This document shows positions 4,615 to 11,756 of a stretch of DNA of 33,510 nucleotides, one piece after another. Source of the stretch: a virus (taxonomy: Duplodnaviria; Heunggongvirae; Uroviricota; Caudoviricetes); IMG/VR virus record IMGVR_UViG_2703718823_000008; one strand, written 5' to 3'. How positions within the stretch are numbered: the stretch's first letter is position 1; every line of letters begins with the position of its first letter. The position numbers were made by a program, and so were the translations under genes. The notes beneath the pieces are model-generated. The model was not told where the DNA came from. It did no database searches and saw only the letters and a program-made list of their open reading frames with translations.

Positions 4615-4974
4615 ATGCTCATAGATTTGGTTTTACCTTACCCGCCAACGGTGAACACCTACTGGCGTCGTCGTGGCAGCACATATTTTATCTCGGAGGA
4701 GGGAAAGCGCTATCGCCGTGCTGTGGCGCTTATTGTTAACCAGCAGCGGCTGAAATTAAGCCTGTCCGGAAGGCTGGTAATCAGGATTATTGCAGAGCCA
4801 CCGGATAAGCGCCGCCGTGACCTGGACAATATTCTGAAAGCGCCGCTGGATGCGCTTACGCATGCGGGGTTGTTAATGGACGATGAGCAGTTTGATGAAA
4901 TCAATATTGTGCGTGGCCTGCCTGTTCCTGGCGGGCGGCTGGGGATAAAAATCACAGAACTGGAGTGCGCATGA
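4615..4974 (+). CDS. rusA: Holliday junction resolvase RusA
   Basis: 119-aa ORF; N-terminal LPYPPTVNTYWR and central DxDN region characteristic of RusA; GAGG SD. Confidence 0.9.
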   Translation: MLIDLVLPYPPTVNTYWRRRGSTYFISEEGKRYRRAVALIVNQQRLKLSLSGRLVIRIIAEPPDKRRRDLDNILKAPLDALTHAGLLMDDEQFDEINIVRGLPVPGGRLGIKITELECA

Positions 4975-5654
4975 ATAACCAGTATTTACAGTTTGTTCGT
5001 GAGCAACTCATGATTGCCACTGCGGATCTCAGTGGGGCGACAAAAGGCCAGCTGGAAGCCTGGCAGGAGAATGCCCTGTTCGATACAGGGCGTTACAGAC
5101 GCAAAAAAATTCGTTATCGCGATGAGGTAACCGGAAAAATGATCACGCGGGATAATCAACCGATCCCGGGTAAACAATCACTGGCGAAAGGCTCATCAAT
5201 TGCGCTGGTCAGTCCGGTTGAGTTTGCAACATCATCGTGGCGGCGTGCCGTTCTGGAACTGGAAGAACATCAGAAGGCGTGGTTACTGTGGTGCTACAGT
5301 GGAAATGTTTGCTGGGAAGATCAGGTCACTATAACACAATGGGTATGGGGTGAGTTTAAAGCTCAGGCTGGTACCAGAAAAATTGCAGGGAAAACGCTGG
5401 ATCGTCTGAAGAAACTGATTTGGCTGGCGGCACAGGATGTGAAGAGTGAGCTGGCAGGGCGTGAGACCTATGAACATCAGGAGTTAGCGGTGTTCATAGG
5501 AGTTGCTAAATCTACATGGACAAAAACACACAGGCCTCACTGGTTGGCTATGCGGGGTAGTGCAGAGATGCTGGACAGGGATGCTCTTATTTCAGTAATG
5601 CGGGTACGTTCACGGCAAAAGTCGATTAATTTAGAACCATATCTTGCAAAATAG
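4971..5654 (+). CDS. Late-gene antiterminator Q-like protein
   Basis: Start overlaps the rusA stop (ATGA); position immediately after rusA and before stacked terminators and the late genes; family assignment is by position and loose recall, not a verified motif. Confidence 0.65.
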   Translation: MNNQYLQFVREQLMIATADLSGATKGQLEAWQENALFDTGRYRRKKIRYRDEVTGKMITRDNQPIPGKQSLAKGSSIALVSPVEFATSSWRRAVLELEEHQKAWLLWCYSGNVCWEDQVTITQWVWGEFKAQAGTRKIAGKTLDRLKKLIWLAAQDVKSELAGRETYEHQELAVFIGVAKSTWTKTHRPHWLAMRGSAEMLDRDALISVMRVRSRQKSINLEPYLAK

Positions 5655-5976: not shown

Positions 5977-5983
5977 CNNAGAC

Positions 5984-6181
5984 ATGCTGAAACAGCAGGA
6001 TATGACAGAAACCGCCAGAGTGGTGTTTAATGAATTAAGCGTCACCGAACCGGCGACAGTCGGGGAGATAGCGCAGAATACTTACCTTTCACGCGAACGC
6101 TGCCAGTTAATACTGACCCAGCTGGTTATGGCGGGTCTGGCAGACTATCAGTTCGGTTGTTACAGACGCCTTCCGCAGTGA
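5984..6181 (+). CDS. Small hypothetical protein (65 aa), possibly a helix-turn-helix protein
   Basis: ORF immediately after the tR'-like terminator, followed by its own terminator; no confident motif. Confidence 0.4.
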   Translation: MLKQQDMTETARVVFNELSVTEPATVGEIAQNTYLSRERCQLILTQLVMAGLADYQFGCYRRLPQ

Positions 6182-6331: not shown

Positions 6332-7390
6332 ATGCTTAATACTGTAAAAATATCCAGTTGTGAGTTAATCAACGCCGACTGCCTTGAATTTATCCGGTCG
6401 TTACCCGAAAATTCTGTTGACCTGATAGTCACGGACCCGCCGTACTTTAAAGTGAAGCCTGAGGGCTGGGATAACCAGTGGAAGGGCGACGATGATTACC
6501 TGAAGTGGCTGGACCAGTGTCTTGCGCAGTTCTGGCGGGTGCTGAAACCTGCCGGAAGTCTTTACCTGTTCTGTGGCCATCGCCTGGCATCTGATATCGA
6601 AATCATGATGCGTGAACACTTCAGTGTGCTGAACCATATTATCTGGGCAAAGCCGTCCGGACGCTGGAACGGGTGCAACAAGGAAAGCCTGAGGGCGTAT
6701 TTCCCCGCCACAGAGCGCATTCTGTTCGCGGAACATTATCAGGGGCCGTATCGCCCGAAAGATGCCGGGTATGAGGCGAAGGGCAGGGCACTGAAACAGC
6801 ATGTGATGGCCCCGCTGATTTCTTACTTTCGTGATGCGCGTGCTGCCCTGGGGATAACGGCAAAACAGATAGTGGATGCCACAGGAAAGAAAAATATGGT
6901 GTCGCACTGGTTCAGTGCCAGCCAGTGGCAGTTACCGGACGAAAGCGATTATCTGAAATTACAGGCGCTGTTTGCCCGGGTGGCAGAAGAGAAGCATCAG
7001 CGCGGAGAACTGGAAAAGCCACATCACCAACTGGTCAGCACATACAGTGAACTGAACCGGCAGTATACGGAACTGCAGAGTGAATATAAGCATCTGCGGC
7101 GGTATTTCGGTGTGACGGTGCGGGTGCCGTACACCGATGTGTGGACGCATAAACCGGTGCAGTACTATCCCGGGAAACATCCGTGCGAAAAACCGGCAGA
7201 AATGCTGCAGCAGATAATCAGTGCGAGCAGTCGTCCGGGTGACCTGGTTGCAGATTTCTTCATGGGGTCGGGTTCGACAGTCAAAGCAGCGATGGTGTTG
7301 GGGCGTCGTGCTACAGGCGTTGAGCTGGAGACTGAACGTTTTGAGCAGACGGTCAGGGAAGTTCAGGATTTAGCCAGCCAGAACGGATGA
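6332..7390 (+). CDS. Orphan DNA methyltransferase (N6-adenine or N4-cytosine, beta class)
   Basis: DPPY motif near the N-terminus (LIVTDPPYF) and FxGxG S-adenosylmethionine-binding motif (FFMGSGST) near the C-terminus; no adjacent restriction endonuclease gene. Confidence 0.9.
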   Translation: MLNTVKISSCELINADCLEFIRSLPENSVDLIVTDPPYFKVKPEGWDNQWKGDDDYLKWLDQCLAQFWRVLKPAGSLYLFCGHRLASDIEIMMREHFSVLNHIIWAKPSGRWNGCNKESLRAYFPATERILFAEHYQGPYRPKDAGYEAKGRALKQHVMAPLISYFRDARAALGITAKQIVDATGKKNMVSHWFSASQWQLPDESDYLKLQALFARVAEEKHQRGELEKPHHQLVSTYSELNRQYTELQSEYKHLRRYFGVTVRVPYTDVWTHKPVQYYPGKHPCEKPAEMLQQIISASSRPGDLVADFFMGSGSTVKAAMVLGRRATGVELETERFEQTVREVQDLASQNG

Positions 7391-7430
7391 TATTGCAGGA
7401 TTAGTTACGTACCGTTATTATCCTGCGCCC

Positions 7431-7506
7431 GGCCCTTTAGCTCAGTGGTGAGAGCGAGCGACTCATAATCGCCAGGTCGCTGGTTCAAATCCAGCAAGGG
7501 CCACCA
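7431..7506 (+). tRNA. tRNA with CAT anticodon, Ile2 (lysidine) type, resembling the host ileX/ileY tRNA and the ileZ of Stx phages
   Basis: Manual cloverleaf fold: acceptor GGCCCTT/AAGGGCC, D-loop with GG, anticodon loop CTCATAA, T-loop TTCAAAT, 3' CCA encoded. Confidence 0.85.
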
Positions 7507-7515
7507 TATCACATA

Positions 7516-7592
7516 CCGCCATTAGCTCATCGGGATAGAGCGCCAGCCTTCGGAGCTGGCTGCGCGGGGTTCGAGTCCTCGATGGCGGTCCA
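7516..7592 (+). tRNA. tRNA-Arg with TCG anticodon
   Basis: Manual cloverleaf fold: acceptor CCGCCAT/ATGGCGG, anticodon stem CCAGC/GCTGG with loop CTTCGGA (G at position 37), T-loop TTCGAGT, 3' CCA encoded. Confidence 0.75.
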
Positions 7593-7870
7593 TTATCTGC
7601 ATCATGCGTTGTTAGCTCTGATGAGTGAATCATTGTCTTTTGAGCAACAGGCTATCATATAAGATAGTCTCAGATTTCCTTGTTTATTCTCGCCGGATGC
7701 TTCGTAGATATTTGCAGGCATCTGTATGCAGGGGTATTATTGCGGCATATATCATCCGGAAAAATAAAAACTACATGCTGATCCGGAGATGATAGTTACA
7801 AGTCCTCCCGGATCCCGCATATTTACTATATTTTATAGATAATTGTTCTTGTTAATATGGAGATGGATAA

Positions 7871-8299
7871 ATGTATTGCCGTGCTGTACCGGTTCTTGTT
7901 TTGATATTAGCCAGTCTGACAACTGGCTGCACAAAAGATGTATCGACAAATAATTATGATGCTTCGCTGCATCACTCAGATAAATTAATAAAGTCGCAAA
8001 ATTTGAGCTTATCGGAACGTACCCCTGATGCCAGTGAAGAAATCCGGCAGTATGCCATTCAGGTCAGGGAAGCCATAGAAGAACAGTTAAAGGATGCGGG
8101 TAAGTATTCAGGAAAAGAGTGTTCACTGAGAATGTATATGGCCCCGAATGGTCTTCTGCTACAGGTTAAAAGAGAAAGCGGTGATCCCGATTTATGTCGT
8201 GAAGCGATGAATGCAGTAAAGAATGCTGATATACCATCACCACCGTCTTCAGGAGTATATAAAGCATTTAGAAATGGCGTGCTGGATTTTAAACTCTGA
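7871..8299 (+). CDS. Lipoprotein carrying a stand-alone TolA C-terminal (domain III)-like domain
   Basis: 142-aa ORF; signal peptide with lipobox-like LTTGC (Thr at +2); C-terminal 80 aa aligns by eye to E. coli TolA domain III (GKxC-LR---APnG-LL, GDP-LC, IP-PPS, VY--F-N--LDFK); GGAG SD; low-GC gene. Confidence 0.8.
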   Translation: MYCRAVPVLVLILASLTTGCTKDVSTNNYDASLHHSDKLIKSQNLSLSERTPDASEEIRQYAIQVREAIEEQLKDAGKYSGKECSLRMYMAPNGLLLQVKRESGDPDLCREAMNAVKNADIPSPPSSGVYKAFRNGVLDFKL

Positions 8300-8321
8300 C
8301 TGGGGGAGAAGATTTTCTCCT

Positions 8322-8612
8322 GTCCAGATGATTTTGGGGTGCTGGAAAGATATTGTGCTGTGAAGTGTTAAATTCCTCACAATTCAGTAAGTTGACAGTT
8401 GCCTGTCAGACTGGGCATTTGTTAAAAAAATTTCGCATGGTGAATCCCCCTGTGCGGAGGGGCGACTGGTGAACGGTATGATCTCTTTGATGATCGTAAG
8501 CGAGAATACGCGGGTTTAGTGTCACCGGGCTGAACTCACCGGGAGGCACCCGGCACCATGCTCATGGTGATACAGAAATGCGGCTTCAGCCCCTCTCTGG
8601 AGGGGCTTTCTT
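8322..8612 (+). repeat. Structured noncoding repeat unit A (about 270-290 bp) ending in an intrinsic terminator; candidate sRNA or 3'-UTR element
   Basis: Shares conserved blocks with units B and C (GTTAAAT-CCTCACA-TTCAG; TGAATCCCCCTG-GCGGAGGGGC; ACCGGGAGGCACCCGGCAC-ATG); terminator GCCCCTC-TCTG-GAGGGGC plus T-tail at 8589-8612. Confidence 0.6.
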
Positions 8613-8618
8613 ATGGAC

Positions 8619-8646
8619 AAAAAAGCCCGCGCTGGGAGACGCGGGC
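8619..8646 (-). terminator. Minus-strand intrinsic terminator capping repeat element D1 (about 8619-8745)
   Basis: GCCCGCG/CGCGGGC stem preceded on + by A6 (T6 on the minus strand); flank GGCAAGGAATAAA-CAATAAAACGTGAAGTAAT conserved with D2. Confidence 0.5.
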
Positions 8647-8765
8647 GGCAAGGAATAAACAATAAAACGTGAAGTAATATTTCAGCTGGCGAATAATACC
8701 CCATAGTAATCACTCTGCGCAACTGCGCGGCCTTTTTCGAATTGCGGGCTGTAGTCTCCCTTCTG

Positions 8766-8930
8766 CCGGGTGGCCTGGTTGCAGATTTCTTCATGGGGTA
8801 GGGTTCGGCAGTTAAAGCAGCGATGGCGCTGGGGCGTCGTGCTATAGGCGTTGAGCTGGATACCGGGCGTTTTGAACAGACTGCGCAGGCAATCAGGGAT
8901 ATATTTATCGGTAGCTGTTTGCAGAAGTAA
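8766..8930 (+). pseudogene. 3' fragment of a second, diverged DNA methyltransferase gene (homologous to 7232-7390) with an in-frame TAG
   Basis: Nucleotide homology to the 3' end of the intact methyltransferase; translation gives LVADFFMG*GSAVKAAMALGRRAIGVELDTGRFEQT; no upstream part of the gene. Confidence 0.7.
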
Positions 8931-9004
8931 TCTCCCAAAATTCCATTTTTGGAATGCAGTGGTTGTTGCTGTAGTGTGGGCAAGTTCTGGAACTGGCTTC
9001 GTCC

Positions 9005-9281
9005 ATTGCAGATGATTGTTAGCTGGATATCAGTTACCTCATGGAAATGTTAAATGACTCACAATTCGGTTGATGGACTATTGTCTGATTGATGGAAGTC
9101 TTGTAAAAACGAGCCAGCATAGTGAATCCCCCTGTGCGGAGGGGCGTCTGACATGGTCTCCATAGCGATGGTCACAATACGCAGATTCAGTAGTCAGGCT
9201 GAATCTACCGGGAGGCACCCGGCACTATGCTGCTTATGGTGTATACACAGCGATCGGCCCCTCTCCTGAGGGGCTTTTTTT
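9005..9281 (+). repeat. Structured noncoding repeat unit B ending in an intrinsic terminator
   Basis: Same conserved blocks as unit A; terminator GCCCCTC-TCCT-GAGGGGC plus T7 at 9257-9281. Confidence 0.6.
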
Positions 9282-9289
9282 GTGCGGGA

Positions 9290-9543
9290 AAAGGCTGTGT
9301 TGTTAAATGTTAAATCCCTCACAGTTCAGATGGTTGATGCTTGCCTGTCTGACGGGGAGTTGTTAAAAAAGTTCTGCATGGTGAATCCCCCTGAGCGGAG
9401 GGGCATATCAGCGCAGGTGTTTCTACTCTATCCTTTCTGTGCGGGTTCAGGTGCTGATACTGAACTCACCGGGAGGCACCCGGCACCATGTAGTATACAG
9501 AGATTAGGCATACATCCAGGCTCCTCATTGCAGGAGCCTTTTT
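9290..9543 (+). repeat. Structured noncoding repeat unit C ending in an intrinsic terminator
   Basis: Same conserved blocks as units A and B; terminator AGGCTCCT-CATTGC-AGGAGCCT plus T4 at 9518-9543 (different stem sequence, same structure). Confidence 0.6.
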
Positions 9544-9549
9544 ACATGC

Positions 9550-9577
9550 AAAAAAACCGCTCCAGGGAAGAGCGGTT
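9550..9577 (-). terminator. Minus-strand intrinsic terminator capping repeat element D2 (about 9550-9668)
   Basis: CCGCTC/GAGCGG stem preceded on + by A7; flanks conserved with D1 while the stem sequence differs and pairing is preserved. Confidence 0.5.
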
Positions 9578-9767
9578 GGCAAGGAATAAATAACAAAACG
9601 TGAAGTAATTTATTCAGCGCCCTAATAATACCTTACAGTAATCACATTGCGCAACTGTATGTAAGGGCGTATTTCTTTTTTGCGGGCTGTTTTGTGTGAC
9701 TTTTGTGTTTCCGGAGGTCAGCCCGAGCCTTCTCTGACTCAGAACATTATTCCGGCCGGGAGGATTC

Positions 9768-11756
9768 ATGGCATTTAAACACTACGATGTGGTCAGGGCG
9801 GCATCGCCGTCAGACCTTGCTGAACGACTGACACAAAAACTGAAGGAGGGGTGGCAGCCATTTGGCAGCCCTGTCGCCATCACGCCTTATACCCTGATGC
9901 AGGCTATTGCGGCGGAAGGTGATGTCACCACGCCGGTGCTGGTTAAACCATCGGGTGACGGGGAGACGGCTATCAGCAAGACCGGTGAGCCTGAATATTA
10001 TTATGTTGTCGCGCTGGCGGGTCAGTCAAATGGTATGTCTTTTGGAGAGGGAGTACCGTTACCTGATTCTTATGATCGCCCTGATCCGAGAATTAAGCAG
10101 CTTGCCCGTCGACGTACCGTTACGCCGCGAGGCGTTCCCTGCACCTATAACGATGTTATTCCGGCAGATCATTGTCTTCATGATGTGATGGATATGAGTG
10201 AAAAAAATCACCCCCGGGCAGACCTCAATAAAGGTCAGTATGGTTGTGTGGGTCAGGGACTGCATATTGCCAAAAAACTGTTACCGTTTATACCGGCGAA
10301 TGCGGGCATTCTTCTGGTTCCATGCTGTCGTGGAGGCTCGGGAGTGACTACAGGTAATGAGGGAACATTTAACGCCTCTTCCGGGGCAAGCCCTGATTCT
10401 GCATTGTGGGGAGCTGATAAGCCGCTGTACCAGGATCTGTTAAGTCGCACGAAAGTCGCGCTGGCTAAAAATCCCGGAAATATCCTGCTGGCGGTAATCT
10501 GGATGCAGGGGGAGAGTGATCTGGCTTCAGGAAGCCAGAGTCATAATGCTCTTTTTACTGGCATGGTACAGAAATTCCGTGCTGACATCGCTGATATGTC
10601 AGGGCAGTGCGTGGGGGGCTCGGCACTGAGCGTTCCGTGGGTTTGTGGCGATACGACGCATTACTGGAAAGAAAAATATGCTGCGTCTTATGAAACTGTA
10701 TACGGTGGATATAAAAATAAGGCAGCGCAGAATATTCACTTTGTCCCTTTCATGGTTGATGGAAGCGGGGTAAATGTGCAGACCAATAATCCGGCAGAAG
10801 ATCCTGATATTGAAGGTATTGGCTACTCCGGTTCGAAGTGGCGAGACAGTTCTGTCAGCTGGACGTCAGGTGACAGGGCAAGCCATTTCGGTTCATGGGC
10901 GCGGCGTGGAATTATTTCAGATCGTCTTGCAACCGCAATTCTGACCCACGCAGGCAAATACCCGGCGTTTATCACCGGGCGGTCAGAAACGGTAGTTGCA
11001 GGAGATGAACGGGAAAACGTTACATCCGGAAATTTCCCGTCACCTGTGGAGGATGCTGCGTTATCACAGGATGCACCTCAGAGAAGAACGGTTGTTGAGT
11101 ATAATTCAGCTGTTGAGAAAGACAGCCTCGGTGGTAACTGGGCAGCCCAGCACTGGAATGCCCGGGACGGTGTCGCCGAGTTTGTTAATGATGAAAGCAG
11201 ACAGGTGCTGAAGATTAAGCAGCATGAGGGCAAACAGGGACCGTGGATGCTGTCAGCAGGAGTATCAGCTGAAGATGCCCGTGCTCTGTATGAAAATGGC
11301 GGTGAAATAAAACTTGAATTCAGGTTGCCGGATGGTACCCAGGTTGCAGATGACAAATACCTCTTTGGTGTTTACCTGCCAGTTTCCGGGTGGACTCAGG
11401 AAGGCAACGGCAGCAATATGATGGCCTCCTTTTTCACTCAGACAAAAGCCAGTAACCTGGATGTCATGTATCACGGTAAAACACAGCCTAATACAAAAAT
11501 TGAGTCATTCGGTGCGGTTAATAACAACTGGCACACGCTTGTCTTTAAATATAAAGGAGGCGGCAATCACCAGGTTATTCCGGTACTTGACGGAGAAGAG
11601 AAAACAGGTTTTGCACTGAAAGAAGGTCCGGTCACTTCTGCCTTTACGGTGGATAACATCACAGTGACAGGTATCAGCGCAAATCAGGGAAAATCTTATC
11701 CTGTCATGTTCCGCAGTATCATGGTAAGCATTAACCAGGCAACCTCTTCATCATAA
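9768..11756 (+). CDS. NanS-p-like sialate O-acetylesterase (DUF1737-like N-terminus plus SGNH-hydrolase-like domain)
   Basis: 662-aa ORF; N-terminus MAFKHYDVVRA...GWQPFGSPV resembles the DUF1737 domain of prophage NanS-p/YjhS-type esterases as recalled; GGGAGG SD; position between the stx-equivalent slot and the lysis cassette. Confidence 0.8.
   Translation: MAFKHYDVVRAASPSDLAERLTQKLKEGWQPFGSPVAITPYTLMQAIAAEGDVTTPVLVKPSGDGETAISKTGEPEYYYVVALAGQSNGMSFGEGVPLPDSYDRPDPRIKQLARRRTVTPRGVPCTYNDVIPADHCLHDVMDMSEKNHPRADLNKGQYGCVGQGLHIAKKLLPFIPANAGILLVPCCRGGSGVTTGNEGTFNASSGASPDSALWGADKPLYQDLLSRTKVALAKNPGNILLAVIWMQGESDLASGSQSHNALFTGMVQKFRADIADMSGQCVGGSALSVPWVCGDTTHYWKEKYAASYETVYGGYKNKAAQNIHFVPFMVDGSGVNVQTNNPAEDPDIEGIGYSGSKWRDSSVSWTSGDRASHFGSWARRGIISDRLATAILTHAGKYPAFITGRSETVVAGDERENVTSGNFPSPVEDAALSQDAPQRRTVVEYNSAVEKDSLGGNWAAQHWNARDGVAEFVNDESRQVLKIKQHEGKQGPWMLSAGVSAEDARALYENGGEIKLEFRLPDGTQVADDKYLFGVYLPVSGWTQEGNGSNMMASFFTQTKASNLDVMYHGKTQPNTKIESFGAVNNNWHTLVFKYKGGGNHQVIPVLDGEEKTGFALKEGPVTSAFTVDNITVTGISANQGKSYPVMFRSIMVSINQATSSS

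Follow-up and report, generated by a model that had tools for sequence, protein, structure and literature searches.

A methyltransferase pseudogene fragment at a recombination joint in the late region of a lambdoid prophage of E. coli

How did the 3′ end of a DNA methyltransferase gene come to lie among the STnc100 copies of a lambdoid late region that also holds an intact methyltransferase gene? The question is raised by positions 8766-8930 of the window, i.e., the whole 33,510-nucleotide stretch of DNA analyzed here, which represents a lambdoid prophage of E. coli and is 99.75% identical over 6 kb to a locus of strain S19-651 (L001). The other loci compared are those of strain RM10042 (L002), an Stx2d phage (L003), E. 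coli SMBL (L004), strain N51 (L005) and E. coli G1/2 (L006); the wider searches covered 5,426 complete E. coli genomes.

The late region and its stx cargo slot

The gene for the Q antiterminator is located at 4965..5654 on the plus strand (Pfam PF06323, E 1.2e-88; antitermination protein Q in the L001 annotation), which places everything downstream of it in the Q-dependent late operon. Q is followed by a 65-codon ORF (5984-6181, between Q and the methyltransferase gene), an intact methyltransferase gene, two tRNA genes, a TolA-like gene, STnc100 copy 1, D element copy 1 and the fragment; to the right of the fragment come STnc100 copies 2 and 3, D element copy 2, nanS-p and the lysis genes. Two ambiguous bases (nn, 5978-5979) immediately follow the T-run of a hairpin that resembles a terminator and lies 3′ of Q, in what is presumably the pR'/tR' region.

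The intact gene, MTase_A (6332..7390, plus strand), encodes a beta-class DNA methyltransferase of 352 aa (PF01555, E 1.1e-42), with DPPY near its N-terminus and FMGSGS near its C-terminus; solved relatives of the beta class exist. MTase_A is 96% identical to the methyltransferase of phage 1720a-02, which has been described as very similar to M.EcoGII, a non-specific adenine methyltransferase (PMC5778455). Through this chain of resemblance, MTase_A likely belongs to the M.EcoGI/M.EcoGII-like prophage family. Both MTase_A and MTase_B, the 355-aa allele to which the fragment belongs (see below), are like M.EcoGI and M.EcoGII in being prophage-borne and in carrying DPPY, then the TRD, then FxGxG, and their lengths (352 and 355 aa) are about equal to that of the M.EcoGI/M.EcoGII-type enzymes (349 aa).

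The two tRNA genes of this left-hand segment, hereafter module A, lie at 7431..7592 on the plus strand (ARAGORN, Rfam and PGAP) and have the anticodons CAT (tRNA-Ile in RefSeq) and TCG (Arg). The module-A cargo proper is a plus-strand gene at 7871..8299, which encodes a TolA-like protein of 142 aa with a TolA C-terminal domain (PF06519, E 3.4e-22) and, at its N-terminus (..ASLTTGC), a probable lipobox. Based on a comparison of layouts, stx2AB of the Stx2d phage fills the slot that the TolA-like gene holds in the window, with the methyltransferase gene and tRNAs on one side and STnc100, the D element and the esterase gene on the other, as in the window. Since stx2AB lies between these matching flanks, the locus is the stx cargo slot, as had been proposed earlier from the window alone. 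The right-hand anchor of the slot is nanS-p (9768..11756, plus strand), a SASA carbohydrate esterase gene (PF03629, PF08410 and PF20350; PGAP).

The fragment was also correctly described as lying inside a repeat array. STnc100 copy 1 (8406..8618, plus strand; Rfam RF02076, 172 bits), which belongs to module A, lies on its left, while copy 2 (9088-9283, plus strand), which belongs to a second module, module B, and copy 3 (9348..9549, plus strand), with a crossover at 9490 inside its conserved core, lie on its right. The minus strand carries the two D elements: copy 1 at 8613..8735, with a promoter-like site, a body of ~70 nt and a minus-strand terminator, and copy 2 at 9544..9667, beyond the 9490 crossover and of a third allele. 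The D element resembles a small leftward gene, having promoter-like TTGCGC and TATTAT elements separated by 18 nt, a conserved body of ~70 nt and a Rho-independent terminator; the terminator stems of the two D copies differ through compensatory changes. At the D position in L006, we found an Rfam AsxR match whose 63 bits just equal the gathering score. The D copies of the window have the same promoter and position as that of L006 and a different transcribed body, for which no Rfam family was matched. A permissive Rfam scan of 8250-9800 gave STnc100 and sub-threshold noise only, with no AsxR or AgvB match.

The number of tandem STnc100 copies is three in the window (8406-9549), five in L002 (5716-8666), four in L005, two in L004, and one each in L003 and L006. 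According to a recent preprint, pasD/STnc100 lies directly upstream of a sialate esterase gene, and multi-copy Pas sRNA genes are distal from each other and not in tandem, reflecting separate acquisitions and no tandem duplication (bioRxiv 10.64898/2026.05.13.724894). The locus studied here is like the STnc100/PasD and AsxR loci (RF02076 and RF02703) in that STnc100 copies flank the fragment and the arrangement is esterase-adjacent; it is unlike them in that these RNA genes are neighbours of the fragment and not the fragment itself, and in that the copies are in tandem, as opposed to distal in the preprint.

The fragment and its source allele

Nucleotides 8766-8881 align without gaps with 7235..7350 of MTase_A, on the plus strand, at 89.7% identity over 116 nt (E 1.4e-40, blastn within the window); the longest exact run between the fragment and MTase_A is of 26 nt (8774-8799). 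The pairwise alignment that the earlier note had called for is thus significant, the fragment is not of low complexity, and the homology is directly observed. The note had taken the whole of 8766-8930 as a diverged copy of 7232-7390, which holds for these 116 nt and fails for the last ~49 nt (8882-8930): the latter cannot be aligned as DNA with 7351-7390, resemble it at the protein level only, and are the tail of a different allele.

Read in the frame from 8742, with stops as asterisks, the fragment gives ..PGGLVADFFMG*GSAVKAAMALGRRAIGVELDTGRFEQTAQAIRDIFIGSCLQK*, and the corresponding end of the intact gene is ..RPGDLVADFFMGSGSTVKAAMVLGRRATGVELETERFEQTVREVQDLASQNG*. The in-frame TAG, which had been noticed before, is located at 8799-8801, where intact genes have the TCG Ser codon of the FxGxG motif, so that FMGSGS becomes FMG*GS; the frame ends at a TAA at 8928-8930. 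When the stop is replaced by Ser, the peptide matches PF01555 (N6_N4_Mtase) with an E of 3.5e-10 and 40.7 bits (cut-off 26.7), and the match is confined to profile positions 181-219 of 221. What the fragment retains is the last 15% of the protein, i.e., the FxGxG region; unlike M.EcoGI and M.EcoGII, it has this region only, with the stop inside the motif, and both the catalytic DPPY (motif IV) half and a start codon at its 5′ end are missing. With the last 15% only and a stop within the motif, it cannot be an enzyme. The absence of the rest of the gene was likewise borne out: no methyltransferase sequence was found 5′ of 8766, where 8377-8767 consists of STnc100, the D element and the nanS-p leader, the same STnc100 and D-element sequence that lies downstream of stx2B in the Stx2d phage.

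In both L001 and L002, PGAP places a DNA methyltransferase pseudogene ("internal stop; incomplete; missing N-terminus") at the identical coordinates, positions 6077-6241 of L001 corresponding to 8766-8930 of the window; RefSeq/PGAP examples are JFY28_RS26575 (NZ_CP075852) and I3W_RS08595 (NZ_CP028122). The fragment is therefore an ordinary pseudogene stump at a recombination joint for which public annotation already exists, and what the present analysis adds to that annotation is its origin, its parents, the breakpoints and a later deletion.

The search for a full-length parental allele, also suggested by the earlier note, was successful. The fragment tail and the sequence downstream of it (8868-9035) were found in 89 of the 5,426 complete E. 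coli genomes, and a full-length allele with this tail in one of them, SMBL, where it is intact and encodes 355 aa. This allele, MTase_B, has the distinctive C-terminal tail of the fragment and the identical 25 nt after the stop, an intergenic stretch that corresponds to 8931..8955 of the window (plus strand; alignment with L004, L002 and L005). Accordingly, 8766..8930 comprises codons 302-355 of an MTase_B allele plus the stop codon, with the TAG inside. The module order in SMBL is MTase_B, an AraC-family HTH gene (241 aa, 63 bp 3′ of MTase_B), two STnc100 copies, a D element and nanS-p, without tRNAs. The module-B cargo is this 241-aa AraC-family regulator (PF12833/PF00165; L004 7127-7852), now gone from the window lineage; one source gives its name as "AraC family transcriptional activator of adiA", and an identical protein occurs on at least 999 contigs.

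At the amino acid level, the window fragment and the SMBL enzyme (residues 302-355) are 87% identical. As DNA, the form of the fragment found with the HTH gene in L002 and L005 (HTH-type), which is the commoner one, differs from SMBL at 6 of 198 nt, and an identity of 90.9% was obtained for the window copy. A large protein collection has precisely this SMBL protein on 60 contigs, so MTase_B is not a one-off allele. A megablast search of 8690-9000 against 50,697 phage records returned neither the joint nor the B tail; the matches were confined to the D element or to the 116 conserved nt.

The relation between the fragment and SMBL changes along the sequence. In the first ~50 nt past the joint, SMBL sides with the MTase_A alleles, against the fragments, at four positions; in the next 156 nt, SMBL and the HTH-type fragment are identical. 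Either the methyltransferase alleles would themselves be mosaic or SMBL would be a later recombinant, and the former is favoured because ~440 further genomes hold full-length alleles that are at least 95% identical to the middle of the fragment. The SMBL allele may thus be read as showing that the parental type exists and not as showing ancestry; the true ancestor may be another allele. We also considered SMBL as a recently "healed" derivative of a fragment carrier and found no support for it, the 5′ part of its methyltransferase gene being just 96.5% identical to that of L002.

The joint, its spread and later changes

The left joint is located at 8766..8767: the module-A nanS-p leader ends at 8767 and homology to MTase_B starts at 8766. 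The window is 100% identical to L003 over 8690-8767, the mismatch begins at 8768, and in L003 the sequence past the breakpoint continues for ~70 bp to the start of nanS-p. Similarly, L006 matches 7393-8767 of the window at 93.5%, and the match ends exactly at 8767. The breakpoint at 8767/8768 is therefore sharp and the same against two independent relatives of module A. The order in L006 is Q, the methyltransferase gene, tRNA-Ile, tRNA-Arg, the TolA-like gene, STnc100, the D element and nanS-p, with nothing of the fragment, and this parent-A layout was found in 36 genomes. Each side of the joint thus matches a different extant layout, that of L006 and L003 on the left up to 8767 and that of L004 on the right from 8766.

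These breakpoints and both parent layouts were directly observed, and they uphold the earlier proposal that the slot was built from two different modules, one type being extant in G1/2 (A) and the other in SMBL (B). The manner of recombination needs refinement. Since the two parents overlap at the joint by just 2 nt, CC, with merely patchy similarity around it in the alignment, the join is illegitimate and out of register, and not a homologous exchange.

At an identity of at least 94%, the joint is covered in 88 of the 5,426 complete genomes, in prophages that sit on several backbones. The TAG is present in all three loci that were aligned base by base (window, L002 and L005), and no genome perfectly matches a TCG version with the other base states of the fragment, the closest reaching 98.8%, with a single mismatch. 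The common joint and the shared TAG were directly observed, and together they point to one old event that would have been inherited ever since. The less-derived carriers L002 and L005 have a B-like right arm, which comprises the STnc100 array through nanS-p and shows 92-93% identity to L004, and their left arm matches the module-A segment of the window, represented by L006; an A-like left arm with a B-like right arm fits a single crossover.

Breakpoint mapping also located a second joint at 8954..8955, with a 2-nt microhomology (AT), by comparison with L004. The window has lost 1,289 bp that are present in L002, L004 and L005 (L004 7089-8377), consisting of the AraC-family HTH gene and ~525 bp. 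The deleted form is found in nine genomes, and the regulator gene is kept in about 79. To the right of this joint, 8956..9490 (plus strand) is the module-B STnc100 region, i.e., copy 2 and the 5′ part of copy 3, and is 98.1% identical to L005. Similarity to L005 and module B breaks off at 9490, within the conserved core of STnc100 copy 3, which indicates a further crossover in this copy; beyond it, D copy 2 and nanS-p share 75-80% identity with the loci examined and represent a third allele.

The upstream context of the fragment also varies. In L005 (4664-5724), Q is followed directly by tRNAs, without an intact methyltransferase gene, and the dead fragment is the sole methyltransferase sequence of the late region; L002 has an additional ORF after Q. 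These differing contexts indicate that the fragment has been carried through further mosaic exchange. The exchange at this locus had been called active, which does not apply to the joint itself, one old event seen in 88 genomes, and does apply to the flanks, with their deletion, crossover and differing contexts.

Beside the deletion joint, the window departs from the L005 copy by nine substitutions in the 100 nt of 8843-8942, where the local background is 2.9%; four of the nine (8908, 8912, 8916 and 8942) have T in the window in place of the G of L005. This cluster might be a signature of repair; the modest enrichment would also fit the drift of an unconstrained pseudogene.

Origin of the fragment and its meaning

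Taken together, the fragment is very probably the non-functional relic of a single recombination, illegitimate and out of register, between two lambdoid late regions of collinear layout. A module-A phage with Q, MTase_A, two tRNAs, the TolA-like cargo, STnc100 and a D element would have supplied the left arm, with its break in the nanS-p leader, ~70 bp short of the start of nanS-p. A module-B phage with Q, MTase_B, the AraC-family regulator, STnc100 copies, a D element and nanS-p would have supplied the right arm, with its break at codon ~302 of MTase_B, and the two broken ends would have been joined via the 2-nt microhomology. Such a product would keep the essential late genes in single copy and stack both cargo sets and both sRNA sets in tandem; the final 54 codons of MTase_B would be left stranded between the two cargo sets. 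The TAG in the AdoMet-binding motif may have been acquired after the join or already carried, and the fragment would have been drifting since. In the window lineage, a second deletion at microhomology, of 1,289 bp, would have removed the AraC-family gene, and a crossover in the conserved STnc100 core would have exchanged the right-hand D element and nanS-p for the third allele. We infer the direction of exchange and the occurrence of one event instead of several steps.

The arrangement of the region as direct repeats, with a methyltransferase 3′ end, STnc100 units and D elements in the same order twice, is also what would be expected if the window had duplicated its own segment from the 3′ end of the methyltransferase gene to the D element in tandem, the copy diverging afterwards. 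We consider such a duplication highly improbable, because the last 49 nt of the fragment and the 25 nt after its stop match SMBL and cannot be aligned with MTase_A of the window, and because the AraC-family gene, which is absent from module A, follows the fragment in ~79 carriers. Moreover, identity within the pairs of STnc100 and D copies is only 70-78%, against 93-98% between each copy and its counterparts from other genomes. As for the fragment itself, SMBL is the closer relative, with an identity of 91-97% (198 nt, tail included), as compared with 89.7% (116 nt) for the resident MTase_A. Two donors could also have contributed in two steps, if a longer stretch of module B, containing all of MTase_B or more of it than now remains, had been inserted 3′ of the D element and later trimmed by deletion. 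The resulting joint would look identical to that of a single step, and a microhomology deletion is known in the region itself, the one at 8954-8955. This sequence of events is nevertheless unlikely: no intermediate was found, all 88 carriers have one and the same joint, a full-length TAG-bearing or longer copy occurs in none of the 5,426 genomes, and a single step is more parsimonious. That the similarity is due to chance, low complexity or faulty assembly has a negligible probability, given an E of 1e-40 within the window, the Pfam E of 3.5e-10, a sequence that is not of low complexity, and an identical joint in 88 independently finished genomes.

The retention of the joint in these 88 genomes, on several backbones, raises the further question of whether the fragment is kept because it is useful, either as a patch of homology with the intact gene 1.5 kb upstream, through which cassettes might be exchanged or the cargo excised, or as a 35-codon ORF (8823-8930). 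The 116 nt at 90% identity are in direct orientation and include the 26-nt exact run, and PGAP predicts a 35-aa hypothetical protein (WP_021293244.1) over the fragment in L005. We regard usefulness as very unlikely, however. A full-length TAG-bearing chimera, the expected product of recombination between the fragment and an intact gene, was found in none of the 5,426 genomes, the best full-length match being SMBL at 96.5%. By manual count, the window-type and HTH-type copies differ by ~5 non-synonymous to 2 synonymous codon changes, and the substitutions of the fragment, 9 in 100 nt, are denser than the local background of 2.9%. No Shine-Dalgarno-like sequence was seen before the ATG of the 35-aa ORF, and no Pfam family scored above the cut-off for this ORF or for the other overlapping ones, a minus-strand ORF of 153 aa (8522-8983) and a plus-strand ORF of 54 aa (8851-9015); the minus-strand ORF gave a sub-threshold zf-SCNM1 match (E 0.029, 14.4 bits vs a cut-off of 27). 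The fold of 8726-9040 was no better than those of shuffled sequences (z = +0.77). Coding and RNA-structure signals were thus directly observed to be lacking here, and hitch-hiking beside the cargo explains the retention. Judging from its sequence, the fragment itself does nothing and bears no sign of selection; it is presumably transcribed passively within the Q-antiterminated late transcript.

As a relic of one out-of-register join, the fragment fits a known scheme. In the model of Hendrix and colleagues, lambdoid mosaics reportedly arise through "novel joints" made by non-homologous recombination, with the addition of moron-type cargo. The joint described here resembles such novel joints in its abrupt switch of parentage, which ignores gene boundaries and occurs at near-zero homology (2 nt), in the gene stump left behind, and in the net gain of cargo between conserved anchors of the late operon. 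There is no difference in kind; what distinguishes the present case is that both parent layouts are extant and that the joint lies in the stx slot. The analysis reveals no new mechanism, gene or element, and in this respect the fragment has little import beyond bookkeeping.

The fragment does explain part of the tandem STnc100 array, which by comparison of the loci appears to have arisen partly from the out-of-register join and partly from copy-number change within module B. A broader and rather doubtful suggestion is that out-of-register joins, together with crossovers in the STnc100 core, might constitute a general route by which cargo is stacked and sRNA genes of the STnc100/PasD and AsxR-like kinds are multiplied in tandem in the stx slot, the 116-nt homology allowing a reversible loss of the upstream cassette. 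If true, this would qualify the statement that multi-copy Pas-family sRNAs come from separate acquisitions and not from tandem duplication. At the level of the locus itself, the joint, which 88 of 5,426 complete genomes carry, represents a lineage marker that is useful when annotating and comparing STEC prophages, and the fragment provides a clean worked example of how the cargo slot of a lambdoid late region grows, with the parents extant and the breakpoints resolved to the base.
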